DNA of 60,445 bases, filler included, from Hausera hauseri (lineage: Eukaryota): NCBI GenBank assembly GCA_046269625.1. It is 10 parts of 10 records of this genome, joined end to end, with 100 filler letters (N's around TTAATTAATTAA, not from the genome) between each part and the next. Parts side by side here need not be neighbours in the genome. Positions count along the whole stretch, not along the records: positions 1 to 4,526 come from JBJURY010541342.1; 9 more parts are not named here. One strand, written 5' to 3'. A program made the position numbers and the translations under genes. Numbering within the stretch: position 1 is the stretch's first letter; each line of letters begins with the position of its first letter. Of the stretch, positions 1-60,247 are shown in pieces. The notes below the pieces were generated by a model. It made no database searches and was not told the DNA's origin. It saw only the letters and a program-made list of their open reading frames with translations.

Positions 1-118
1 CTCCAATTTGTCGGTATAGACTTTTGGACAGTGGTTTGAGGACAGTGACGTGCTGCTGTAAGAAATCATCGATATCGAAACTGGAACTGACTGCTGGATT
101 CTTCGCCTTCTCGGTCAT
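1..118 (-). CDS. 5' end of Gypsy accessory ORF (MTEKAKNPAVSSSFDIDDFLQQHVTVLKPLSKSLYRQIG...), runs off contig
   Basis: ATG at 118-116, open to the contig end; resembles SIDDYLQRCVKILILQSKSIFR at 48409 onward. Confidence 0.6.
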   Translation of the reverse strand, partial: MTEKAKNPAVSSSFDIDDFLQQHVTVLKPLSKSLYRQIG

Positions 119-150
119 ACTTACTTTGCTGAAATAAAAGTAAAGGTTAA
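119..150 (-). promoter_or_regulatory. Putative 3' splice site followed by a 4-nt exon and a 5' splice site
   Basis: Minus strand TTAAC-CTTTACTTTTATTT-CAG-caaa-GTAAGT-ATG; the same layout occurs at 48368-48402. Confidence 0.55.
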
Positions 151-196
151 TCCTAAGACAGGTCATCGTTTTAAAATAAAACATTTTCTCTGTCTG

Positions 197-240
197 ATGA
201 TAGGATAACCCAATCTCTAGTTGTCAGGTTATGCTATCAT
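197..240 (-). other. Conserved 44-nt RNA stem-loop between membrane ORF and accessory ORF
   Basis: ATGATAG-c-ATAACCT...GGGTTAT-c-CTATCAT; same-length homologous hairpin at 48280-48323. Confidence 0.6.
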
Positions 241-265
241 AAAGTCCGTCTTGGTGCCCTTTTAC

Positions 266-1546
266 TCATTTATCTCCTTTCCGATTTTTGCATCGCTTAT
301 TACAACTTTTGGAAACTAGAAAAATCATCGCCGTTAATATGACAAGAAAGAAAATTGACAAACTTAATATAGCTATCGTCAGTAAATTGTTTAGCTCAGT
401 AGACATTTTTGTGGTAGAAGCATCTTGCGTACTCAGATCTCTATACCGCATTACCTCGATCTGGTTGTTTAGAGTCCGCACTGTATAAGTTTTAGGGTTC
501 TTACCCTTTGAGGTAATTCTGATTATATAGTCATGTTGCGGCCGTAAGGACCTGCATTCAGCTTCCTGACTATTCTTTTTCAGGATCACAACTTGGTTGG
601 TGTGCAGGGTGCGACATTCGATTTTGACGTCTCGATTAAACGTCTCTTCAGCGTAAAATAAAATTTTGTCGCTTTTTGACAAAATCTTTACTGGTATGCT
701 TCCGGGCATTTCGTCCGAAGTGACAATCGTAGTGGTGAGAGTTGTGCTTGGAGCAGTAGACGGTTTTCCCGTAGTGGTTTGGAATGGAAGCTTCCATATT
801 TCGTTTCTTGGGCGATATCCCCGTAAATAGGTACTCTGCTCTCCGGGGTACGTATTATACAAATCGAGTTGCAACTGATACTCCTGTCCTAGTTGTATTA
901 CACAGCACGTAGTAGATTAACGTCTGGGCAGATAACAATACTCCGGGTTAGGAATGAAAGCATTCAATGGTATAAATCGGACAGAAATTTGACTGTACTC
1001 TGGCAGCTCTATTGTGTTCTTAATTCGTATACATTGATTCTTTAAGTCCTTGTAAATTCCCATAATGTTATAATCTAAGAGTATTTTAAACGGGTCAGTG
1101 CTTCGTATTATTTCGTCCATCTTGGCTTAGTTTGCATCTTTTCGTTGGGGCATTTTTATTACGAGTTCTGTAATTATATAAGCTTGAGGTCCAAACTGAT
1201 TACAATAAAACATTTGAAATCTGTATCCGTAGGATTGTCCAAAATTCAAATCACAACATCTTTTGTGATGTCCGTACGGAAAATCGCACGTTCTCATCGT
1301 GTTTCCGGTTACACATATTATTTGAAATTTTACGTGTCTCTGAACAGGTTCGCTTGCTTCAAACCATGCGCATGGTTTTTTCCAATCTATATCGTGTACT
1401 CTAAGTGACTGTAAATTTTGGATATCCTTTTGTTTTGCTGCATATTGTAATTTTCCTGTCTGTGAAGTCGATTTCACTTTTGGTATATACGAAGCGATTA
1501 ACGATAAGGCGAGGATTATCTGCACGTATGATACTGGTCCGGTCAC
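266..1546 (-). pseudogene. Element-encoded type I membrane protein (signal-like segment, Cys-rich repeats, S/T stalk, FN3-like domain, TM), in frame with the integrase
   Basis: ORFs 1622-1888, 1127-1546, 917-1120 and 266-874 share one frame and are separated only by single stops. SYVQIILALSLIASYIP is signal-like; LRPQHDYIIRIT..VRT is FN3-like; LLTIAILSLSIFFLVILTAMIFLVS is a TM helix. Homolog at 46860-48250. Confidence 0.75.
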
Positions 1547-1579
1547 TATAATCGACGTTTTCTTTTCTTTATTTGTATT

Positions 1580-4526
1580 GCTTGAACGCAGATTATAACG
1601 TTTATTTGGCCTTATTTCCGTTTAAACTACTCTTTGAATCGACATAACTTTTTCTTTGCCGTTCTTATTTATATAAACTGTGGTTGATGTAACTTTAGTA
1701 ACTTCATAAGGTCCTCTGCCTGTCCTGGAAAGCTTAAGAGATGTGCCTTTCTTTGCTACTGGATAGTGTACGTAAACCCAGTTTCCGGGTTTTAAATCGT
1801 GAGGTTTAGCTTTCCTATCGTATTGCTTCTTGAATTGTTCCTGATAGTCATCAGATAATTCCTTGGCTATTTCCCAACACTTGTGCAATCTCGATTGTAA
1901 TACTTCAACAAAATTTTATTCTAAGTCTTCCGTTCTTGTTGTGTATGGGATCAATCCTAAATCTGTAGGCAATACGGCTTCTCTGCCATACATCATGAAA
2001 AACGGAGTAAATCCTGTTGCAGGATGTGGTGTAGTATTAATGGCAAACTGTGTACCTTCTAAGAACTCAGCTAATCTTTTTGGTCTCTTGCGACTACTGT
2101 CGATAAGATTCGTATAACGGTCGCGTTCATCCGCTTGACCATTCCATTGCATTTGGGATGATAAGCTGTAGTAGGTAGTTGTTCAATCTGAAAAATTTTG
2201 GTAATTTTGTCAAATAATTTGCTCTTAAAGTTTCTTCCTCGATCTGTCAAGATTTGTTCGGGTGGCCCGTATCTGCAAATGATTTTCCGAACTAGGGCTT
2301 CTGCCAAGGTCTCGGCCTTTTGGTCTAATAACGCTATAAGTTCGACGAAATGAGTCAATCAGTTTACACAGGTCAAAATGTATTTGTTATTCTTGTGGGT
2401 TGAAGGCAATGGTCCTACGATATTTATAGACATTGTTTGCACTGGTCTATTTGGCACATTGATAGGTTTAAGTTTAGCGATGTAGTTTTTCACTTTCCTT
2501 TGTTTGGTTGCTCATACTTCGCAAGCATTCACCCAATTCCTTACGTCAATATAAATGCTCGGCCAATAGTACTTATTTAATATCCTTTTCAATGTCTTTT
2601 TCCACGACATGTGTCCGGCTAGGTATAAATCATGTTCGGCTATGAGCACTTCCGTTCGTAATTCCTTTGGTATTACGACTAATTTTTGTTCTTTTCGTTC
2701 GTAGTATAGCACATTTTCTCGGTTCAAATCTCCAACAACGCAGTATTTGTGACCATATAGTCGTAGGTCTTTTCGTAACTGATGACACTTGGGTGTTACA
2801 TTAGTATCAACGAACTCGATAATCTGTTGTATAACCTTGTCTTTCCTCTGTTAGACAGAAATCTTCAATGCCTTGTCTAATGTGAGAGTCCGTTGTCTTT
2901 CTACTAAATCTTCGAGATGGGCTTTCCCCATTACTGTAACTGCGCTTGTTTTGGTTTTAAGTCTCGATAATGCGTCGGCATCAACGTGTTTACTTTCAGA
3001 TTTGTATTGAAATTTGATATTGTATTGTGATATCTCTTCGATCTATCTGTTAAGCCTACAGGTGGGATTATTTGCCCTACCCTTTAAGGTTGTAATTGCC
3101 TTATGATCAGTAACGATTACTATCCTCGGCCCATAGACGTATACATTAAAATGTCTCAAGGCTTCTTTCACCGCTAACGTTTCTAACTCTGTTACGGAAT
3201 AGTTCTTCTCTGCTTTCTTTATAGAATGTCCTCCGGAGGCGATTGGGTGTTTTAGCTCCTTGTCTTCCCGTTTCTGAGCTAATTCATATTCGATGCCTTC
3301 CTTACTGGCATATGTTTTCATTATGAACGGTAGGTTAAAGTCAGGATATCTTAAAACAGGTTCACTAGTTAGAATTTTCTTCATTTCATCAAAAGCCTTT
3401 TGTTCGATATCAGTCCATTTCCATTTAATTCCCTTTTTCAATAAACGATACAAAGGCGCATTTGTCTTTGCATTATTCGATATATAAGTGGCATAATATC
3501 CACATAATCCTAACCAGTTTCAGAGCTCCTTTTGATTCTGGGGTTCCATGCAATCTGATATCTTATTCAATAGTGATTTATCCGGCTTCGACCCTCCTTC
3601 TCCAACTATATGTCCAAGGTACGATACAGCATTCTAAGCCCATTTGCATTTCTTGGGATTCAGCTTTAATCCAGCCTGCTCCAGTCTCATTAGTGTACCT
3701 TCAATATCATTTATGTGATCTTCTTCCGTTTTTAACGCGATCATAACGTCGTCCAAGTAGGCAAATGCGTGTTCTAATCCCATTAGCATCTTATTTATCA
3801 TGCGCGTAAAAAGGGCTGGTCCGGTAGTAATTCCAAAATGCATGACATTAAAATCGTATATACCATAGTGTGTCTTAAATGCCGTTTTGTAACGATCTTC
3901 CTCTTCCGTCTCCACTTGCTAATATCCAGATTGTAAATCGAGCATGGTAAACCATTTAGCTCCCAAAAGTTTGTCCAAAGCTTCCTTTACCAATGGTAAT
4001 GGAAAAGAGTTTTGCATCATGAGTATATTTAATGCTTGATAGTCGATACAAAATCGGTGCTTACTGTTACCCTTTTTCTTAACCATGAGTATTAATGAAT
4101 ACCAAGATCTGTAGCTGGGTCTAATTATGTCGGCCTTTAACATTCGTTCAACCTCTTTGGTTATATCCGGCCTTAATGAGTGTGGAGAAGGATACCATTT
4201 CGGCATCTTTTGATCCTCAAGATCTATTTCATCGTTTGACCCAGGCTTTTTTTAAGCGGAATTGTGAGCTTTAAGGTCCTGGCTCGGCCAATGTCTTCTT
4301 CATCCTTTGCGATAATTGAGCTGTAGCGACAAAGTAGTTCGTAAAATCGACAATATGAGTCTGGTAAAAATTTAGTCTCAACATGGGGTGGAAATTTGGC
4401 ACCCTTATACCTTTTCTCTTTGATGATAATTGACGATACTCTGTACGTGTGTCCTAGAGTGGTATTGGTGTACAGCTTGGTTGGAGTGGGCGCTTTATTC
4501 GCTATTCTAATTGGTACACAGCCTGT
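1580..4526 (-). pseudogene. pol: Ty3/Gypsy pol (PR-RT linker, RT, RNase H, integrase) with stops and frameshifts
   Basis: RFCIDYQALN, LDLQSGY, FAYLDDVMI (RT); KNYSVTELETLAV, VTDHKAI (RNase H); GHMSWKKT..YWPSIY..CEV (HHCC); LTDRGRNF, NGMVKRMN, GPYEV and terminal RYNLRS (IN). Confidence 0.95.
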
Positions 4527-9935: not shown

Positions 9936-12932
9936 GTTAGCCTAAATAAAATACCCGATGTCACCATGATAGCAACAGACTCGTATATTGAGTTTAAGGT
10001 CTTGCAATTATTAGACGATCCTATTTCAATAACTTGTGTAGGAAAATATCACATAATATACGCCGCTATAAAAAAGCACGAAAGGATAACTAGATGCATT
10101 GACCTCCAACCTGATGAAGAGTACCTAATCGTTTTCACCCAACACCATGCCGTAACGAGACATCGAACAATTAGAACTCAAACAAGAACCAGAAAATATT
10201 TGGCACATGAAGAATTTCCCATCTATACGCCACTACAAATAGTGACTAAGCCTAGTACACATGCAGATATGTTAAAAGTCATAATCCCTTCCATAATAAT
10301 AATAGTGCTTCTCCTGTCCATATCCACACCCTTTGTAATAATAGAAATAAAAAGAGTTTCCAAGAAACGAAATATAATGAACAAAACCTTATTACTTACA
10401 ACTCATCTAATCTGCCTAGTAAAATTAGGTAAAGATCTAGAAGAACTAGAAATCACTTCATCGCAAAAAACTGCGACTCCTTCTGATAGAGATTATAACC
10501 TCTTAAAAATTTTAATCACCATCATCTTCCTCACGTTACTTGTTACTAACCAAAAAGTTCCGCATCTAATAACCATAGTTCAGCGTGTGGAGTTGATAAT
10601 CGCCGCCGAAGGATTTGATAATTTAAATTTACACAAATATCTAACGAAACATACAACATATCTGTATAATTTAACACACCATCAAAAGTTACACACATCA
10701 TACACACGTGACTCTATAATGCAGCAACAACCAATAAAACTTAACTATAACAAGTTAAGAAACACCTACATGTTACATAAAGATACCTACACCAGAAATT
10801 ACTTCTTTTTTCAGTACTCTATGGCAAAATCAAACCAAGAATTTGATGTTGATCTAGACCAAAGCGATGACGATTCAGAATTCAATTTCACTCTCCCCAC
10901 TCTCCCAGACTCTAAACCAAGAGTTGTATCTTCAATGGAAATTAATCCAGATTCCGATTCTAATGAATCAACGGGAACAGTAATTGTTAACCCTAAAAGA
11001 AGGGTTATACCACCCCATCAGGAATTAATGAAAGTTCCACATGATAACTTCACATTCAAAAATCCAGTGCAAAATGGACATACGCGAGGAATTCTAGCCG
11101 CAACAATATGTAATAATACCAAACCCATCAAAAGACAACAACCTTTAGCAACAGAAATCAGACGAAAATCTTTTTCAATCAATGATCTCCCGGAAGAAAA
11201 AAGATCAAAAATTCAAGAAAAATTAATTGAAAATCTAAAAGAAACCGAGCAAAGTCGAATCAAAAATAGATCATGGGATGAACTTTGTAAAAAACTGATA
11301 AAAGTTTATGAACCGGGACGTAGCCTATTCCCTTCAAAATTTTATACTCGAATCATAGAATTAACAGAAACTTCAACAGATTTGATATATCCGGAATGTT
11401 GGTATTTAGAGAATGGCTTAAAAACTATGACTACAAATAATCGTTTATTCAGAATCATAACCATAATAAAACCTCTATACAACGTCAATCTCAATACTAT
11501 ACTGCAATTAGATATGAATTTTGAAAAAGTAATGATTCATTTAGCACGAGGAAAAGTTCAATTTAAAACCGAAGCGGATGTATATGAAACCCAAAGTCTT
11601 CGAAATTCCTTAATGAATACAAGAACAACTATGGCCATAAAAGCTACAGCTTTCATGACGCAGATCTATTTTCAAATCATTCAACATCCTGTCATATTTG
11701 CTTTCGAAATTTGCCAACACATGGATGAATTAATGGGTTTAAAGCCCCCCATATTTTATCAAGTTCCAGAAGAAAAGGACATGGATGGTTATCGACTAAC
11801 AACAGTCTTTAACTATCGATATCTAGCTGTATCATTAGCTTATGCTACAAATGGAGAACCATTGCCCGTAGAGGTAATAATCGCAAATGAGACTGGGTCC
11901 ATTGTCTATCAATCGCTTATAAACCCCAGGAAACGAATTAGTAATACAAACGAACATCACCATGGTTTCACCATGGCAATTATCCAACAGTCACCAGATG
12001 AAGAGGACGTCCGAAGAGAATTAACCAAATACTTATATGGTTATATAGTAGTGAGTGTTAATACTAATACCATATTAAAAGCATTAAGAATACCTTTGAA
12101 TTTCATATATGGAGTCTTCGATATCTTAACAGCCGCAAACACCAAAGTTCGATTTCAAGAGGCTCAAAAGAAGCTCAATTTAACACAGTTGCCGAAAATA
12201 TACGAACTAGACTATGAATTTCCAAAAGCAGCCGAACCCATTTTACAGACCATCATGGAAATCCATAAAAAAATTCTAAATTCTTGTACTAATGAAGAAT
12301 GGGAATGGAAATGGCTCCCACCATCAAATAATTTGATCAACAATGACAGTTTCATGGAAATACCAGAAAAATATCACCAGAACTACCACTATGAACCTAT
12401 ATTTAGAAACGAGACAAATTCTCCAATACAAAAAATGAAAGACAACACAGAAGAGTTATTAAAAAATGCACAACAAAGTAAAATAATACAACCGCTAAAG
12501 CTGTCTATATTAATTTATGGTCAAAACCAACAAGCCATTAATGTACAATTTTTACAGAAACCAATATCAACGATTAATCAATTTGGTCAAATTCGGCTTA
12601 ACCCAAAGCTAGGAGTATTAGTCGGAATAATTTATAAACACCTAATGCACAACACGTTGCATTTAGCGATGATTGGAGTACATCATGAGACTATGAAAAG
12701 TCTCAATCATGAACCAATACTGGTAAACCAACCAATTCCAATGCAACTTCATCCGACGCCCATCCCTAAACCAAGAGGTGGAAGAGCAATTATGCTAAAA
12801 GGAACTGATAAAGCAAAATTAAAAATGCTATTGTATCACAAGAATGGTGTATTTATGCTAGAAAATCTCTACCAAATGGAGAAGATGGAACAAACCGAAA
12901 CGGAAAACAATGACTTATTTATCCAATTGTGA
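9936..12932 (+). CDS. Uninterrupted, 5'-truncated accessory polyprotein: FN3-like domain, TM segment(s), low-complexity region, degenerate REX4/ISG20-like DEDDh domain, unknown C-terminal domain
   Basis: Frame open from the contig start (at least 988 aa). CIDLQPDEEYLIVF..IRT is FN3-like; VIIPSIIIIVLLLSISTPFVII is a TM helix; IVYQSLINPRKRISNTNEHHHGFT..DVRRELTKYLYGYIVVS is an exonuclease fold; C-terminus homologous to 55657-56103. Confidence 0.85.
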   Translation, partial: VSLNKIPDVTMIATDSYIEFKVLQLLDDPISITCVGKYHIIYAAIKKHERITRCIDLQPDEEYLIVFTQHHAVTRHRTIRTQTRTRKYLAHEEFPIYTPLQIVTKPSTHADMLKVIIPSIIIIVLLLSISTPFVIIEIKRVSKKRNIMNKTLLLTTHLICLVKLGKDLEELEITSSQKTATPSDRDYNLLKILITIIFLTLLVTNQKVPHLITIVQRVELIIAAEGFDNLNLHKYLTKHTTYLYNLTHHQKLHTSYTRDSIMQQQPIKLNYNKLRNTYMLHKDTYTRNYFFFQYSMAKSNQEFDVDLDQSDDDSEFNFTLPTLPDSKPRVVSSMEINPDSDSNESTGTVIVNPKRRVIPPHQELMKVPHDNFTFKNPVQNGHTRGILAATICNNTKPIKRQQPLATEIRRKSFSINDLPEEKRSKIQEKLIENLKETEQSRIKNRSWDELCKKLIKVYEPGRSLFPSKFYTRIIELTETSTDLIYPECWYLENGLKTMTTNNRLFRIITIIKPLYNVNLNTILQLDMNFEKVMIHLARGKVQFKTEADVYETQSLRNSLMNTRTTMAIKATAFMTQIYFQIIQHPVIFAFEICQHMDELMGLKPPIFYQVPEEKDMDGYRLTTVFNYRYLAVSLAYATNGEPLPVEVIIANETGSIVYQSLINPRKRISNTNEHHHGFTMAIIQQSPDEEDVRRELTKYLYGYIVVSVNTNTILKALRIPLNFIYGVFDILTAANTKVRFQEAQKKLNLTQLPKIYELDYEFPKAAEPILQTIMEIHKKILNSCTNEEWEWKWLPPSNNLINNDSFMEIPEKYHQNYHYEPIFRNETNSPIQKMKDNTEELLKNAQQSKIIQPLKLSILIYGQNQQAINVQFLQKPISTINQFGQIRLNPKLGVLVGIIYKHLMHNTLHLAMIGVHHETMKSLNHEPILVNQPIPMQLHPTPIPKPRGGRAIMLKGTDKAKLKMLLYHKNGVFMLENLYQMEKMEQTETENNDLFIQL

Positions 12933-14769: not shown

Positions 14770-16669
14770 TCGGCAATTAGTGATCAGACCAATCAGAATT
14801 GAACTGCTGTGTCACGTGTTATGTTCGTGTGTAACCATTTGTCACAATACTTTGTTTGAGATATTTAGGAATTAGGATTTTCGAAGTGCGTTCTTGAAAT
14901 GGAAAAAAATGTTGATTAAGCTTATTAGTAGGATTCTGTTCACAATAAGATAAACGGTGGTTGAATTTATTCAACAAGTTGGTGTAGATTTAGATGATCG
15001 ACATGAGTTTCAGCTGAATGAGTTGTGGAACAAGCATGAAGAATTAACGATGAGAAACCTTGTTTAACAGCATATAAGATAGCTAGCACATACAATTTCG
15101 TGGTACTTTGAATTACTTGACAATTATTAACATAAGATCAAAGTAAACAGGTCAAAAATTGATACAAATGCACTAAGTATGCGAACCAAAATTTTGTTTA
15201 TACTAGACTTTCGGTAATAAAATTCGTTTTGTTTACAAGATGACTACCAATTTATTAACAAATGTGCCAAAATAGATTGAGTTAATTGGAATTTACAAGG
15301 AGTGTACGAGTTGATTTATTATGTTGAAATCTTAATCACAAAAAATTATCAAAATTATCAATCGACAAAATAGATCAAAACCATATTGGCGTATATATTA
15401 CATATGATGTATATATGACAATATTATATGGATATAAAAGATTGGAATTGATTTATGAAATATGAATTTGAAAATAACTGATCCAGAAGTCCTGTTACGG
15501 ACATTTTCAATCCACACGAATTTCACAAAAAACAGAAAATATTTTGAAAAGGTCTATGTGTATATAGACTCAGGAAAGTTCGGAGGCCACGCCTATGGCT
15601 CCTCCCTGAGAAAAGTGACAAATTCGAGCCAGGAGAGGCGAAAGAAAATAACAATATTATCTTTGTCCAAAATGATCAAATCAGATGCACAATTGTACAA
15701 ATATAAATTAGAAAAAATTGATACTCTTATAACTGATGAAGGGTTGAGTTATGGTAAACCAAGTAATCTTAACGAAAGAAATCTGATGATGCATTATACA
15801 ACGGACTATTCGTACCATCAAGACTTAAAAAATATTACTACAGAAATTATCATAGGCAGAACTATAAGAATAGAAACTAAAGGGAAGATACTTGGTAATT
15901 CTATAAATAATTATAAAGTTTATTTTGAGATCAATTTAAACCGGAATCTTTGTAAAGGTAAATGCAAACATCTCACAGACGTAAAAAAAGTAGAAAACAG
16001 AGTGAAAGCGGGAAGACGAAATAAATCGAGGATGAAGGTGATTATTAAATGGGAAGACGATGTCAGGCGAAACAACCACAAATTAGGACTGTATATAGTG
16101 AGATTTCCGTTGAGATTGTTACAAGGTAGATTGAATAGTAACGTTAATTGTTGCGTTTCTCCTTTCGATTTCGCTGAGGTTGACTTGGGCTGCATAAATG
16201 CATGTATGTCTGTAAAAGTCAGAGTGGCTGCAACGGAAAACAAAAATAAAGGTGGAAAAATTCCCCCACGAAGGAGCACCGCGTTAACAATGGCTAAGAA
16301 TGGTTGTAAATTTAATTTAAATGTATTTTTGTATTATTATATATTTATAAAAGGTTTTGGGGAATTTAACAGAATTTGTAAACTGTATCTTATGGGGTCT
16401 GGAACAAGGACTTAAACGGTAATAAAAGAAAAAAAGACCTGGAGATTGGGCCTTATGGAATTCGAGATGGGTTTAGGGATACGTAAGTTCAGAGAAATCA
16501 TTGATGATACTTTGAGAGTTGGTGAGAACAAGAGTTTCGTGAAGGGTGAAATTTGTCTAACAGTGGATATGTTAGGTTTTGAGATATTTGCGTTGAACAA
16601 CACCTATATAGAATCATCCTATATACAGTATACAGTACCTACATTATGTAATTTCTATATGGATTCTTC

Positions 16670-19040
16670 ATCAACTTTAATGAACATAAGCCAGTTGCAC
16701 AACCTGCAGTACCACGGCCTGTAGTACCACGGCCTGCAGTACCACTGCCTGCAGTACAGCCAGATGCAGGACTAAAACACGTATCAGGTGCATCAGGTGT
16801 AGCGGCTCTAACAAAAAGTCAGAGACAGCAGCCAGTTGATGTAGCTGCACTGAAGAGCAAAGTGCGGCGATACTTTATAGCAGCAGTAGGGCAGACATCG
16901 CTCCATGAATTCCTGGAATATTCAAAGGAAGAGGCATCAGGAATTCTCCAGGGCAACTTGTTGGAGCTGAAGGCTCTTAAGGTGAACTTCAAATTGGAAG
17001 CTACATTCACCAGTGTCAAAGGAGAACTGTCTAGTAGAGCCTTCAAGACAAAGAACAGGCCACTATCGAAATCCTTTAACATTAAGGATTTTATTACAGA
17101 TACCCATGCAAGGCTCATCCGCGAAACCGAAGAAAGCCAGAACAAGAAGAGCGGTTGGACTTTAGCAACAATAAAGGGGTTACTTTTGCAAGTGCACAAG
17201 TATTCTCCTATGAGAGGCAGCTCCTACGTACCGCTTCCTGATTGGATAGTTAAGAAAAAGGCGTGCATCAATGTCCATAATGATGACAGCATGTGCTTCA
17301 TGTATTCTATTTTGTCAAAACTAGTCCAGGATAAACATAATGCTTCCCGAGTTTGGATAAATGACAAAGTGCAGCACACATACGAATTCAGCTGCATTTT
17401 ATTTCCGCAGAGCCTAGATGAAATCGTGAAATTTGAAAGCGTGAACAACATCTCAATCAACATCTTCGGATTGGAGGCGGATAAATTTTATCCCTAACAT
17501 GTGTACAAGGAGGAATTGGAGGAACATAGGGATCTGCTCCTGCTAGATAATGGAGAAACTAGGCATTTCATCTGGATCAAGAATTTTGAGCGCCTCGTAG
17601 GATCCCAAATATTCAAGCATAAATCAAGGCTGGAAATATGCAAAAGATGCTTTATCTATTTTAATGGAGACACAGCCGCAGAAAATTTGGTGGAACACAA
17701 GTCCTACTGCAATACAAGCTATAGCATCTTAGCAAAATTCCCAAAGGAGGATTTCCTGGAATTCAAGGAGTTCGAGAAGATGCACAAGGTTCCGATTGCC
17801 ATATATTGTGACTTTGAAGCCATCTTCATTCCATTTTACAGCTGCAGCCCCAATACACAGTAAAGCAGTATTACAGTATACCAGTACCATGAGTTATCAT
17901 TATACTACATGTATGCCAAAGGACTGGACAAAAAACCCTACCTATACAGGGGTGTAAATGCAACAGCACATTTTATCAGCGTCTGGAACTGTATTCCCAC
18001 AAACTTGAAGACATGTTGCAACAGCATAAGGATTACATGGCGATGTCGTGGCAAGAAAAAGGTCAATGGTGCAAAGCATCAACATGCTACTTATGCAAAA
18101 AGCCATTCACATGAGACAATCACAAAGTCAGGGATCACTGCCATTTTACAGGCATATACCGAGGCGCAGCGTGCAACAATTGCAACTTACTATGCAAGAC
18201 ATGCACATGTGTTTTCGTGGTATTCCACAATCTTAGTGGATACGATTCCCACTTCATTGTTCAAGAATTTGGTAATATTGAGTGGAACATTGATGTGATT
18301 CCAAATAGTGAGGAGCAGTACATCACCTTCACGAAGCATGTGGAACGCATCAGACTTTGCTTCATTGATAACTTCCGCTTCATGAGCTCGCCACTGGACA
18401 GCATCGTGAAGACCCTTCCAGCTGATGAGCTCAAGGAGACAAAGGGGTTCTTCCCGAATACATTTGATCTAATGAAGCGGAAAGGAGTGTTCCCCTATGA
18501 CTATATAACATCATGGAAAGAACTGGATGAAGATGCATTACTGGCCAAGGAGGACGTCTATAGTCAGTTGTCATACAGTCGTATTAGCGATGCTGACTAT
18601 GAGCACGCCGAAAGAGTATGGCAGACTTTCCAGTGCAGGAAAATAGGGGAATACAGTGATATTTATCTCCTCACAGATGTCCTGTTGCTTACTGATGTCT
18701 TCAAAAGCTTTCGGGATGTGGCCATTAAGAGCCACATGTTAGATCCAGCCCATTTCTTTACAGCTCCGGGAATAAGTTGGGCAGCTATGCTGCGCTATAC
18801 CGGCATAAGGCTCCAGATCTTGAAGGATTACAATATAGTCGTCATGATTGAGAGAGGCATTAGGGGCGGAATCTGCCAGGCCATTCAAAGGTACAGTGAG
18901 GCCAACAACAAATGCATGGTAAATTATGATCCATCCAAGGAATCCTCATATATATCATACCTGGATGCCAACAATCTGTATGGATAGGCAATGAGCAACC
19001 CATAGCCCTATGATAACTTTCAATGGGTGGAGCAACCGCA
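16670..19040 (+). pseudogene. polB: Polinton/Maverick (adintovirus-like) protein-primed DNA polymerase B, 3'-truncated
   Basis: KSGWTL, YCDFEA, endonuclease VII-like RDHCHFTG.YRGAAC..CN, HNLSGYDSHF, KGVFPYDY, DVLLLTDVF, YLDANNLYG; several frameshifts. Confidence 0.92.
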
Positions 19041-48279: not shown

Positions 48280-48323
48280 ATGATAAAATAACCTGACAAC
48301 TACAGAGCGGGTTATTCTATCAT
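48280..48323 (+). other. Conserved RNA stem-loop
   Basis: ATGATA-a-AATAACCTG...CGGGTTATT-c-TATCAT; homolog of 197-240. Confidence 0.6.
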
Positions 48324-48367: not shown

Positions 48368-48402
48368 TTAACCCTTATTTTTTGTTCTTCAGATCGGTAA
48401 GT
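48368..48402 (+). promoter_or_regulatory. Putative acceptor, 4-nt exon and donor
   Basis: TTAAC-CCTTATTTTTTGTTCTT-CAG-atcg-GTAAGT, ATG at 48409. Confidence 0.55.
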
Positions 48403-48408
48403 ATTCAA

Positions 48409-49500
48409 ATGGTGACCAGAAATAACAATGAGCGACGTAGTATCGACGACTATCTACAAAGGTGTGTAAAAATACTAATTCTCCAATCCAAGTCAATATT
48501 CCGATAGATTAACAATGAATTGCAAGGTAGAAACCTCGTGTAGTACAGAAAAATCAGCGATATCCCCAATAATCTTAAAGGCACTACGGAAGAAAATAGA
48601 GTCGTTCGCTTGTACGCATTGAGAGAGAACATGGATGCGAAAGCTTATGGCTTACGACAAATTGTCCAATATGAATCCGACCGATGTCAAAATATTCATT
48701 CACTTAGAAGATGGAGATTTATTATCGATTAAAGGACCAAGCTTGGGATTTCTCTCAAGGAAGGCAAAGCCGGTATAGCACTTTTCTCCTCAACAGCAAG
48801 GACTTTCACCATTACATTTGTGAGCTGGAATTTCGGATAGCTGCATTACCGGTTAAATTGATGATTCACGTGACTAATGAAGAGACGCCGACTGTACAAT
48901 TACCTTTATTAGAGTTTAGGCAGAAACCCACTAAAAGAAATCAGGACGAACATTTACATTCTTTTAGACTGGTACAAGATGCAAGAAATACTATGATCAT
49001 AGCCTTAAATTACGGAGAAGGTGACGACGAGAACTATATTCCGATTGAAGTATCAGTCCAAGAAGCCGGCAGCATCGAGATTTACTCAAAAATAATCAAC
49101 CGAAGAAAAAGGATAAGAGAGACTTATGCGGAGGTAACAGGGATAAGGATGGAGCAGCTGACTAGCGGTAAAGATATTGAACAGGTCCGAGAAGAATTAA
49201 CCCACTGCTTATATGGATGCATTATAGTTGGATACCAAGTAGAAACAATTATAGAATACGAGAAATCAAAATCCATCCTACAATAATGGGATGAGTAGAA
49301 CAGAGTCTTAGGGAAAGAAAAGGGTATCTACCGCCGACCGTGAAAGGTCGAGTTAAACCAATGATCAAATCAATGAGTGGAAGACATGTCAAAATAAGTC
49401 GTCTGTTAACCGCCAATCAACGTTCCCAATATTTGAGTGATATAAACGAAGAACTAAAATGGGACCACGAGTGGATCCCAGACAACCCGAATCAGAATCT
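48409..49500 (+). pseudogene. Accessory ORF with degenerate REX4/ISG20-like DEDDh exonuclease domain (about 48993-49260)
   Basis: IYSKIINRRKRIRETYAEVTGIRMEQLTSGKDIEQVREELTHCLYGCIIVGY resembles REX4 VYD.YVKP...TDYRT.VSGIR.EDL..G.DF..VQ.EV..LLKGRILVGH; aligns with 11817-12290. Confidence 0.7.
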
Positions 49501-50106: not shown

Positions 50107-50760
50107 ATGCTAGTAATCACTGAATATTATAGCCGTAAAAAATCAGAGGCCGCGTTCTTCGTCAAGACCCTACCAGCGCGAGACCTTTACGAGAACACCT
50201 ATATTTGGGAAAGTCCGAAGATAGGGAAATATATTACACCGGTTTTCCAGTCAAAAAGAAATGGTAAATTGATAGTACCGGTAGACAAAACGGTGAAAGC
50301 ATTCTTCAAGAAGCAATACCAGAAATATCAGTTAATAGGAGAGATTCCCGATTTAGATCGAGATGCTATCAGTGATTGGACATTGGTACCGGTAGGATGC
50401 GACCCGAGGGAAAGTTACATAAATGTCAGACAGAAAAGGATCTATGGATATTTGTACTAAGACGGAGATGGTCTTGTGTTTGAACCCATTGAGCTTACAA
50501 TACGAGTGGATTTCGATGACGAAAAATGGGAAAAAGAGGAAAACGAGTGTCCCATATGCGAAGCAGACCTTAAACAGGGATATGTAATTTTAAACAATTT
50601 AGATTATCGGCACAAATACTGTCGGGACTGCTTGGAAAAATGGACGTTAGATAATGGCAAGACCACATGTCCAGCATGCAGAGCCGACCCAAATAATCTA
50701 AAACATTTTTCGAACGGTAGCTATACCCGCGTGGTACGCATAAAACCCTACCACAGTTAA
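50107..50760 (+). pseudogene. Accessory ORF ending in a RING finger
   Basis: ORFs 50107-50460 and 50476-50760 share a frame; CPICEADL..DYRHKYCRDCLEKW..TTCPACRA is RING-HC-like with the third Cys replaced by Tyr. Confidence 0.75.
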
Positions 50761-51489
50761 ACCTTGGAAACGAATGTCCGAGAAGGTCTACCAAATACCA
50801 GTTCGAAATCAAGCTTACGTCAAAGGATGAACCTCCTAAGACGACCACGTTACGGCGGCACCTCTTCTGACGCGATGGGCGCATCCGAGGATGCCGTTCA
50901 GGGAGAAGAGATGTTGTAAAGATATTGCTAGGAAAGACACTAAGACCCGTTTGCGACACTGTCATATTTTCAGGTCTTAGTGCAGCAGCTGAAACAATTA
51001 AAACGAAGAAGAAGCATTAATTGTAAATTTTGAATGGATATAAAAGTAGGGGAAAAATGCGCATNNNNNNNNNNNNNNNNNNNNNNNNNNNNNNNNNNNN
51101 NNNNNNNNTTAATTAATTAANNNNNNNNNNNNNNNNNNNNNNNNNNNNNNNNNNNNNNNNNNNNAGCAGATCAGGAGAAGAATATTCAGCTTTGAGTTAT
51201 TACTTGGAACATCTGAACCAAATAATAACTTGAGGAGATTATCTGTAGGTTTTAAAACATGTTTTCTAACATAAATAGGTTGAAAAATGACATAATTCCC
51301 TTTATATCACAAACTGATGTGGTGTGCTCTGTTTTTAATTTCACACATCTTTGATCTCAGCAGTGGTGGAAACTGTTCCGCTAACAGCAGAACTAGCTTC
51401 ATATTAGATGTCTTCTAACTTTGGAAACTGTTAGCGAACCGGTTTGCTTTCACTAAATATGGTTCCACTTTTAATTCTACTAAAAAAAA

Positions 51490-58598: not shown

Positions 58599-58968
58599 TC
58601 ACAATAATGTCTGTAATGTAAGCCAAAATAGGCAGTTATGTCCACATAATACAGTAAGTGGATGTTGATAATGAAGTCGATTGCATTCAACACGATGATG
58701 ATGTGATTGTCTTTCAATTTGAGAAACTAACGATGACGGGTAATAAAACCCGAGCGGATCGAATACCTTGACGACGGTCGAATGTTCATGCACCACAATC
58801 CAATGTTCGCCCGGTAACGATGAACTGTGTGTATTGACGATGAAACCTCAGTCACCATTTTTTCGTAAGTCACGCGGCACACGGTCCAGTGGAAACACAA
58901 TGCGGAATTTCACGCCCAAGAGCAGTTTTCCATAGTGACTGAGTTTAGTTGATCTAAACGTAAAACAT
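58599..58968 (-). pseudogene. Adenain-like cysteine protease of a Polinton/adintovirus-like element
   Basis: FIVNTHSSSLPGEHWIV..FDPLG..YQHPLTVLCGHNCLFWL supplies the catalytic His, Asp, Gln and Cys motifs; upstream stop. Confidence 0.85.
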
Positions 58969-59072
58969 GATTTAATCATAATAGTAATAATGGTAATAAA
59001 TTACTTCATGGTGCAACGAGGAGGAAGAAGAAGAAGAAGGTTTTATTTATACCATGACGATTCTGTTTTTCG

Positions 59073-60247
59073 TTATTTCAACCTTAACATCAAATGCAAC
59101 GCTTTAGCAAAATGAATCTCCAGTCGTAAGTTTCCTTGCTGAGGGAGTTGAGTTTGTTCAACATCATAATCCGGAGCCAGGACAAAGGTGAAGAATGGAT
59201 AAGTGGACTTGAACAAATCCATTGATATGCCATTACTGATGTTTTTGTTGAGCAAACCCATGTTGCGCAGGATAGATTGCATATATGTGCAAACACAATC
59301 ATTAAACTCAAAGTCTTGTTTGTACGTGTCAACAAAATCGGCATTCCGACCCAAACTGATGTAATTCACATTGCTATGGGTAAGCTTTTCCGAATCCGTC
59401 ATATAACTGCCCGTTTGTTGAACATTCGTTTGAAATGTAATAAGCATAAATTTTGGCAATCGCATGTCGCCAAACGGTGCATCTTTGTAAAACGTAGTTG
59501 AACCTTTGGGTATCTTGTAAAACACAAGTTCTGTGCGTTGTATCAGGTAACAGACATTTTGCGTTTCGAAGCCCAATTTCCCTTGAGCACAGATGATTCT
59601 ACCTTTACACGACGCACATATAATCGTGCCTCGGTACTTTTCAGTATGGGTTTGAGATTTGCAACTGCGTTTTCCAAACAAAAGACATTGTAGCTTTGTT
59701 TGATCCGAATTATGGCTTTAACACCGGACAGTATGTATTTCGGCTGATCGAAAAAGTCAAAGTACAGTGGTCCACACATTGTAAGCGCTTATGATTCTGC
59801 CACCCATGCCTGACGGTTTACCGCTGTGGCATCGTATCCGATGACTTTTGTCAAATGAGTCATTTTCCTGTCAGTACTGTAATTCAGAACCGTTTTAATG
59901 AGTGCTTTGATACTGTATAGACTAATGTTGCCTTCGATTTTGACGCTGTTCAGAGTCAGTGAAGCCTCTTGGATCAGTGTGAGGAAAAGGCAATTGGCCG
60001 GTGTGACAGTGTCTGTTGCAGTGAGAACCGATGATGCACCCTTTTTATCAATGACTTTTATATAAAGTATCGTATCGGTCAAATCCAGGTATTCATTGTT
60101 CGATGCAATAATGTTGAATTGAATGTCAGTATTATCGTCCGTTGAAACCGAATCAACGGCCTAGATTTCTTCAAATGCCGCATTGTCAATAACAACTTGT
60201 GGCGCCGCATTCTCGAATAAACACAATTCAGATTTGGCAGATGCCAT
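59073..60247 (-). pseudogene. Major capsid protein (double jelly-roll, Polinton/adintovirus type), disrupted
   Basis: AKSELCLF..PQV, IQFNI..EYLDL.DTILYIK, LNYS, GPLYFDFFDQPKYILSGV, ARLYVRRVKV, LPKFMLI, F.FVLAPD, GNLRLEIHFAKAL; lies directly upstream of the protease. Confidence 0.88.

Follow-up and report, generated by a model that had tools for sequence, protein, structure and literature searches.

Envelope-bearing retrotransposons have been described with one envelope protein, and herpesvirus gB-type fusogens need a partner for receptor binding. Burro, an element of planarian hosts, is 25-30 kb in size and carries MATH, BCL2, BIR and ankyrin modules. Section 7 of PMC6431247 (by Arkhipova and Yushenova) describes its env as lying in frame between gag and pol within an open reading frame (ORF) of 4,873 amino acids (aa), with accessory ORFs that are either separate or fused. 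Gag-env-pol errantiviruses with an env of the HSV/gB type (HSV being herpes simplex virus) are reported, in the compared text of Chary and Hayashi (PMC13524379), from nematodes, bryozoans and flatworms, with Smed_errantivirus_1-6 among them. Bdelloid rotifer long terminal repeat (LTR) elements such as Vesta and Juno carry DEDDy and small Cys-bearing transmembrane (TM) ORF3s after pol, according to the part of Rodriguez et al. (PMC5408684) compared here. The subject of the present analysis is a decayed Ty3/gypsy element in a stretch of 60,445 nucleotides (nt) from Hausera hauseri (assembly GCA_046269625.1; ten contigs joined end to end with filler, hereafter the window, whose coordinates are used throughout), in which the pol frame appears to continue past integrase into a second membrane protein.

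Contig 1 (window 1-4526, minus strand) starts inside pol and comprises the 3' part of a decayed copy, with Pfam matches to reverse transcriptase (RT; 3436..4245, -; PF00078, E 2.8e-32) and to RNase H (RH) and the zinc finger and core of integrase (IN; 2077..3435, -; PF17919 E 2.7e-28, PF17921 E 1.1e-16, PF00665 E 9.6e-12). A longer copy of the same family occupies contig 8 (41025-51064, plus strand); its RT-RH-IN (44180..46890, +) is 74-83% identical in protein to that of contig 1, and it is free of a frame break that contig 1 has near 2070, inside IN. A distant member is on contig 3, and at most 10 kb of any one copy is in view, the contigs ending inside the element. A HMMER search of 1.84 billion representative proteins gave two homologues of the membrane protein, both unnamed single-member clusters: P0003 (479 aa, 37% identity, E 2.6e-72) and P0004 (189 aa, 46% identity). 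No ectodomain homologue of near length came from a word-index protein search (0/2167); the P0003 locus was found in none of 130 metagenome contigs and neither of 2 viral contigs, and the pol locus in none of 25 viral contigs. In a search of sequencing runs with contig 1 one run matched, X1, a public one, and no RNA run was among the matches listed. X1 contains 0.28 of the contig 1 words, and 4714 of its contig pieces align to positions 1-2400, which points to a family with many variants. The counts of differences from X1 given below come from 40 of the 710 difference rows and are in units of depth, which is not copy number.

On contig 1 one frame, read from 1888 to 266 (-), carries the IN C-terminus, RPNKRYNLRS and SYVQIILALSLIASYIP, after which come a pair of Cys-rich beta units, a stalk rich in Thr, a further beta unit and a TM helix. 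The preliminary description of this DNA had given just this frame and this succession of modules, and both hold; it had left out four stops, all of them private to contig 1. That at 1624-1622, immediately ahead of the IN tail RPNKRYNLRS, has a differing letter in 14795 of 14850 depth units (74 contigs of X1, among the differences listed, as for the others), that at 1129-1127 in 277 of 283 (14 contigs), that at 919-917 in 215 of 215 (15 contigs) and that at 268-266 in 4088 of 4107 (46 contigs), while contig 8 has sense codons where these stops align and stops of its own at other places. By both lines of comparison, then, no fixed stop follows IN; programmed read-through at 1624 was considered and rejected, that stop being private. 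The one at 266, supposed earlier to end the protein, is likewise private and not the true end, which is the common stop 14 codons further on, at 226-224, after Y-D-S-I-T. Contig 8 ends at the same place (48294-48296), and a Y-x-x-I-T C-terminus is found in all four close copies (contigs 1 and 8, P0003, P0004).

That the same junction occurs on contig 8, as had been noticed, is confirmed by a local score of 540 between the two contigs, the shuffle maximum being 60 (0/100 shuffles). The IN C-terminal part with its YNLR tail and basic linker, in which the 1624-1622 stop falls, spans 1529..2068 (-) and is 80-82% identical in aa to contig 8 over IN and 63% over the linker. Between 1470 and 1640 no indel reaches 25% of depth in X1, and the 21 listed substitutions are divided among third, first and second codon positions of this frame as 15, 5 and 1 (hand-counted; binomial P about 4e-4); pN/pS between contigs 1 and 8 is 0.31 in the linker and 0.11 in the signal-like segment. 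Downstream of IN no common stop breaks the frame before the one at Y-x-x-I-T, and conservation at the codon level spans the junction. A start Met before the signal is not general, since contig 1 has Val at the codon of the Met that contig 8 has there and no change at the third base of this codon reaches 25% of depth. No strong splice acceptor precedes the signal in contig 1 or contig 8 by pattern scan, the sole such site in each contig lying after the tail. As a side observation, a search of metagenome contigs with the IN tail gave one match in 297, to an unrelated gypsy element (L001, 2-2350, +) whose IN stops directly after the matching motif and which has a gag-like ORF downstream of pol; its ordinary IN end is useful for comparison.

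The internal signal-like segment (1481..1528, -; Kyte-Doolittle 11-window 2.58) is unusually conserved, with 14 of 16 residues identical to contig 8 and 13 of 16 to P0003. By hydropathy it is one of only two strong hydrophobic segments in the contig 1 frame, the other being the TM helix (301..376, -; Kyte-Doolittle 19-window 2.91), which is a helix in the contig 1 and P0003 models alike. From there a basic cytosolic tail, delimited by alignment of the copies and the X1 differences, extends over 224..300 (-), takes in the private stop 268-266 and closes with Y-x-x-I-T and the common stop. There are 4 K/R and 1 acidic residue before the signal and 8 K/R and 2 acidic after the TM helix, and contig 8 and P0003 have a candidate signal-peptidase site, T-x-A/Q-W (cut between A and Q), that fits the -3/-1 rule. 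Hydropathy, charge bias and this site all accord with the type I layout suggested previously, which we predict for the protein, and the site makes the proposed release from Pol by signal peptidase plausible. P0003 has 4 N-glycosylation sequons. Its residues 45-74 are predicted to form a long charged helix between the signal and domain 1, a stretch of which contig 1 is without a part.

What lies outside the membrane is predicted to be three FN3-like domains. The stop-free P0003, folded with six natural rows, gave seven-strand domains at residues 76-161, 191-282 and 328-398 (block pLDDT mostly 65-88, pTM 0.34), and the top PDB rows for this model in Foldseek are three-domain FN3 fragments, the match to fibronectin FN10-12 covering 340 columns at E 7.8e-11; the high root-mean-square deviation (rmsd) of these three-domain matches is due to unsettled inter-domain angles, and domains 1 and 2 are covered solely within such multi-domain alignments. 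On contig 1 predicted domain 1, Cys-rich, is placed by alignment to the model at 1156..1405 (-), and predicted domain 2, also Cys-rich and holding the private stop 919-917, at 793..1066 (-) by model, Foldseek and alignment; a Thr/Ser-rich low-complexity stalk follows at 700..790 (-), pLDDT being below 50 at P0003 288-321, and then predicted domain 3 at 478..688 (-), with two invariant Cys and VIA structure matches. For domain 3 the VIA Z is 9.7 in the P0003 model (rmsd 2.4-2.5 over 79 residues) and 7.1 in the contig 1 model (rmsd 2.3 over 76), a Z in the range that the tool rates as common. Domain 3 also has L-x-P-x-x-x-Y, presumably the FN3 tyrosine-corner motif, with L, P and Y invariant across contigs 1, 3 and 8; the motif is present in P0003 and P0004 too, and is looser in domains 1 and 2.

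Contig 1 folded as a single sequence has a mean pLDDT of 40.5, domain 3 alone being readable, and no Foldseek match at E <=0.001. Domains 1 and 2 align weakly with one another (score 43 against 25 +/- 4; 1/500 shuffles), and the Pfam PF00041 gathering score was not reached, the best value being 13 bits against a cut-off of 25 (E 0.12, in P0004). A PDB sequence search with a domain 3 profile gave 2 matches at chance level; the viral structure matches of the P0003 model are generic FN3 proteins, and its protein-atlas neighbours, at 0.83-0.87, are FN3 type I proteins, to be taken as leads only. The extracellular-type beta-sandwich of the preliminary description is thus predicted as FN3 tandems: its third unit was rightly seen as FN3-like, and its two Cys-rich units are predicted to be FN3-like as well and not a separate kind. 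The FN3-like unit that it placed on contig 3 scores 59 against 27 +/- 5 (0/1000 shuffles), and the retention of cysteines and signal is seen in 11 Cys columns common to contig 1, which has 14 Cys, and P0003, which has 12, and in the signal identities given above.

Contig 8 reveals what the truncated contig 1 does not reach. A class III (chuvirus/gB-type) fusion glycoprotein, in two frames, lies upstream of pol at 41025..43077 (+; PF24664, E 3.4e-20 and 3.6e-29, both above cut-off); after a gap of about 300 nt, on the same strand, comes an aspartic protease (PR; 43219..43776, +; PF00077, E 2.8e-4, 21.6 bits against a cut-off of 20.7) and then RT, RH and IN, an order with env before pol that is seen on contig 8 only. 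Thus a gB-type env directly upstream of pol, a trait of GAG-ENV-POL errantiviruses, is present on contig 8, and across contigs 8 and 1 the Pfam matches follow the Ty3/gypsy order PR-RT-RH-IN. Between PR and RT, where Burro has a dUTPase-like domain, a spacer ORF (43780-44181) has no Pfam or NCBIfam match at E <=1. The second copy of the signal-FN3x3-TM-tail protein, placed by alignment to contig 1, runs from 46892 to 48296 (+) with several stops and frame breaks. With its class III fusogen placed ahead of the protease, contig 8 makes the FN3 protein a second membrane protein and not an env substitute, so the earlier assignment of it to the usual env slot does not stand. Nor was the FN3 protein itself retained as a candidate env: there is no Pfam fusion family for P0002 or P0003, and the model is of three small beta sandwiches, which is not a fusogen fold.

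The ectodomain had been called visibly more diverged than pol, and it is, at 27-40% aa identity against 74-83%. Between contigs 1 and 8 dN is 0.08-0.16 in pol and 0.77, 0.58 and 0.53 in domains 1, 2 and 3 (for domain 1 over two pieces around a frame break of contig 8); pS is 0.6-0.87, near saturation, and pN/pS is 0.65, 0.53 and 0.43 for the three domains, with intervals below 1. To judge from these values the ectodomain is fast yet constrained. Fast evolution as earlier proposed is borne out in dN, an arms race is not supported with synonymous sites so near saturated, and positive selection is not claimed, dS being near saturation and pN/pS 0.43-0.65.

Our preferred reading, to which we would give a probability of roughly one half, is that the frame is the 3' end of pol in a decayed env-before-pol Ty3/gypsy element and leads from IN through a likely internal signal into a membrane protein with three predicted FN3 domains, likely an adhesion or attachment partner of the class III fusogen at the surface. 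The architecture in it we regard as very probable; given that architecture, we lean mildly towards an attachment role. A role in attachment or cell contact is favoured, ranking above decoy or superinfection block, then a separately started gene, then a passenger. One polyprotein would thread the endoplasmic reticulum (ER): the fusogen and the FN3 protein would lie outside, and Pol in the cytosol, flanked by the fusogen TM helix on one side and by the second signal on the other. Signal peptidase would cut at T-x-A/Q-W, admitting the FN3 ectodomain to the ER lumen, after which the element protease or signal peptide peptidase might free IN from the leftover signal stub; alternatively the stub might hold IN at the membrane. 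Either stub removal or such holding of IN could be a reason why the signal is conserved like pol. Motifs of the Y-x-x-hydrophobic kind have an endocytic role, and the tail could sort the FN3 protein through endocytic traffic to sites of budding or cell contact. Only tentatively would we go further, to a herpesvirus-like two-part entry machine of class III fusogen and triple-FN3 attachment protein made from one polyprotein that might cross the ER at least 4 times, with PR, RT and IN between anchors.

Several observations weigh against this reading. No intact full-length copy was seen, the window copies on contigs 1 and 8 all being broken; stops and frame breaks separate env from PR on contig 8, so that an env-PR fusion is only conjectural, and an env for contig 1 is taken from contig 8, since contig 1 starts inside pol. 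Word-index protein searches for a long polyprotein homologue gave 0/4879 (up to 2700 aa) and 0/4281 (up to 2395 aa), which is weak evidence, and run X1 is perhaps not independent of the source of the window. Contig 1 is without about 21 residues after the hydrophobic core, T-x-A/Q-W included, and the 21 residues that follow its signal are likewise basic, with 5 K/R; it has no N-glycosylation sequon in 355 residues where 2.4 are expected (P about 0.07). FN3 is moreover a common fold from which function is not readable. Finally, contig 8 has a Met 2 residues upstream of the signal and P0003 has one 6 residues upstream, and the ORF called for P0003, known from protein alone, begins 15 residues ahead of the signal with sequence that does not resemble the linker, and is not continuous with IN; either initiation of its own or a break in that copy may account for this, both fitting.

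These last points are what would be expected were the FN3 protein a separate accessory gene with its own Met and a subgenomic message, the frame shared with IN being a leftover or a minor second route. The next gene of the element uses acceptor-like sites, and accessory ORFs of Burro are either separate or inside the polyprotein in the compared section of PMC6431247. Yet there is no Met at that codon in contig 1 or in most of the X1 depth and no strong acceptor before the signal in either contig; IN would, in the absence of a stop, still be made with the extension, and the linker is under codon-level constraint. We therefore hold a separate gene to be improbable, and of the independent initiation against which the preliminary description had set its reading there remains a start in individual copies, for which the Met of contig 8 and P0003 leaves room. 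Still less can be said for a passenger, part of a host FN3 receptor gene that was captured and does nothing for the element. Animals commonly have FN3-TM proteins, the divergence is high and the copies on contigs 1 and 8 are all broken; against this, the protein persists in five copies that have diverged (contigs 1, 3 and 8, P0003 and P0004; 23-46% identity), its Cys, signal, TM helix and tail motif stay conserved even as synonymous sites approach saturation, the domain pN/pS intervals are below 1, and among the 1.84 billion representatives there is no host homologue, only the two hits. The pattern of conservation largely refutes the passenger idea as it stands, and we consider it very improbable.

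A different use of the same polyprotein and fold is a less remote prospect. The protein might act on the host cell, blocking superinfection or serving as a decoy receptor, with a host cytokine, an immune factor or the entry receptor as its ligand. Among the neighbours of its fold are ectodomains of the cytokine-receptor and adhesion kinds (gp130, IFNAR2, IL-22R); its tail is too short for signalling and ends in an endocytosis-like motif; dN is several-fold above pol; and the element has other host-directed modules, RING and DnaQ-like, much as Burro has apoptosis and ubiquitin modules. On the other hand, in-frame synthesis would couple its amount to that of fusogen and Pol, as for a structural protein, and no single receptor family stands out, identities being 6-18% and the top Z values tied. 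We rate action on the host cell as rather unlikely.

Downstream of the FN3 protein, contig 1 has a conserved non-coding spacer (119..223, -; 74% identity to contig 8, no codon periodicity) in which a branch-point-like TTAAC stands with a pyrimidine tract and AG (150-129) and, 4 nt later, a donor-like GTAAGT, and beyond this spacer the start of the next ORF, which runs off the contig (2..118, -; aligned to contig 8 from 48406). The acceptor-like pattern is the sole match in each of contigs 1 and 8, at matching places; shuffling leads one to expect 0.25 and 0.47 per contig, so that the shared place is the notable part. In three copies an acceptor-like pyrimidine tract and AG stand 6-16 nt before an ATG (150-119, -; 48368-48402, +; 10799-10823, +), and in contigs 1 and 8 GTAAGT comes exactly 4 nt after the AG, resembling a 4-nt micro-exon or a switch. 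Conceivably the downstream genes are made from a spliced or trans-spliced message by way of this conserved acceptor. On contig 8 they comprise a weak DnaQ/DEDDh-like match (49050..49241, +; TIGR01405 E 1.5e-4, far below cut-off; PF00929 E 0.031) whose first catalytic motif was not seen, and, downstream of it, an ORF at 50107-50900 (+) with a RING finger (50542..50682, +; PF13639 E 1.6e-7, above cut-off); on contig 7 another Cys pattern of RING-like type was noted by eye (37838-37545, -). The contig 3 ORF (9936..12932, +; 998 aa, open at the contig start and with no stop) has, by alignment, hydropathy and profile search, FN3-like domain 3, a TM helix, two more hydrophobic stretches and a DnaQ-like domain (TIGR01406 E 8e-4, first catalytic motif not visible). 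Over its final 132 residues it shares 50% identity with the beginning of contig 10 (55657-56103, +), and a protein-atlas search with it gave no usable match.

Elsewhere in the window a polinton-like DNA polymerase B of the protein-primed type is present twice, both times decayed (16652-19040, +, and 38060-40780, -; PF03175 E 2.6e-8), and there are ORFs at 58640-60160 (-) that we take to resemble polinton/adintovirus capsid and cysteine protease, two pieces of which have no Pfam match. Contig 6 has host-like genes with long exons, for a WW-domain protein, a divergent TBP-like ORF (PF00352 E 1e-10) and a kinesin-associated protein (PF05804 E 8e-46), the host-like intervals being 24709-25299 (+), 30787-31323 (-) and 32533-32913 (+). 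A 434-aa frame at 20757-22061 (-) matches the C-terminus of glycogen debranching enzyme over its last 110 residues (PF06202 E 1e-13), its N-terminal part being unmatched.

How, then, does this element stand beside known systems? Animal FN3 type I proteins (FNDC5, IL11RA, contactin, gp130 tandems) are alike in predicted tandem FN3 fold, TM helix and short tail; here, in contrast, identities are 6-18%, the Pfam fn3 cut-off is missed, there are extra conserved Cys pairs and the setting is a retroelement polyprotein. Two-component entry is familiar from herpesviruses, gB with gD or gH/gL, and paramyxoviruses, F with HN/G: the likeness is in having a fusogen and a separate variable surface protein, there is no sequence relation, and here enzymes lie between the membrane proteins. 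Flaviviruses and hepatitis C virus (HCV, at core-E1) have polyproteins cut by signal peptidase and are similar in the internal signals that release glycoproteins, again with no sequence relation.

Closer are the flatworm GAG-ENV-POL errantiviruses, which in the compared text of PMC13524379 share Ty3/gypsy PR-RT-RH-IN and a class III env upstream of pol; six Schmidtea C1a env rows in its supplement file 3 resemble the contig 8 env by eye, unscored, a likeness that makes a flatworm host likely. That text describes only chromodomains after IN and mentions no second membrane protein, the POL sequences lying outside it, and 'fibronectin' and 'exonuclease' each have 0 occurrences in the main text. 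The planarian Burro/GYPSM1 LTR elements, as far as the compared section of PMC6431247 goes, resemble the present element in a mononegavirus-like fusogen, env before pol, ubiquitin-related modules and, on the reading preferred here, a very long polyprotein, while no signal-FN3-TM protein after IN is among the Burro domains listed there (MATH, SUMO-like, BCL2, BIR, ankyrin, AIR1, Smc, dUTPase). Rotifer ORF3s are separate ORFs, mostly in elements without a canonical env, whereas in the present element a fusogen accompanies a TM protein that is read in the pol frame; 'fibronectin' has 0 occurrences in the compared part of PMC5408684, and that of PMC8532177 has nothing further on domains. Across the compared texts there is no post-integrase in-frame triple-FN3 membrane protein beside an upstream fusogen, and figures and outside sequence files of these papers may annotate the region.

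The comparison yields a prediction about the region after IN in the long ORFs of intact multi-copy Schmidtea elements; should the Burro ORFs already known end in this way, the finding would be an unannotated domain of a known element. For the target-cell choice of gB-type errantiviruses, the FN3 surface protein would provide a concrete candidate partner, or else a host-directed decoy. The class of element is known, and what is probably new in it, as judged from the texts compared, is an in-frame FN3 membrane protein after integrase in company with a separate fusogen upstream.

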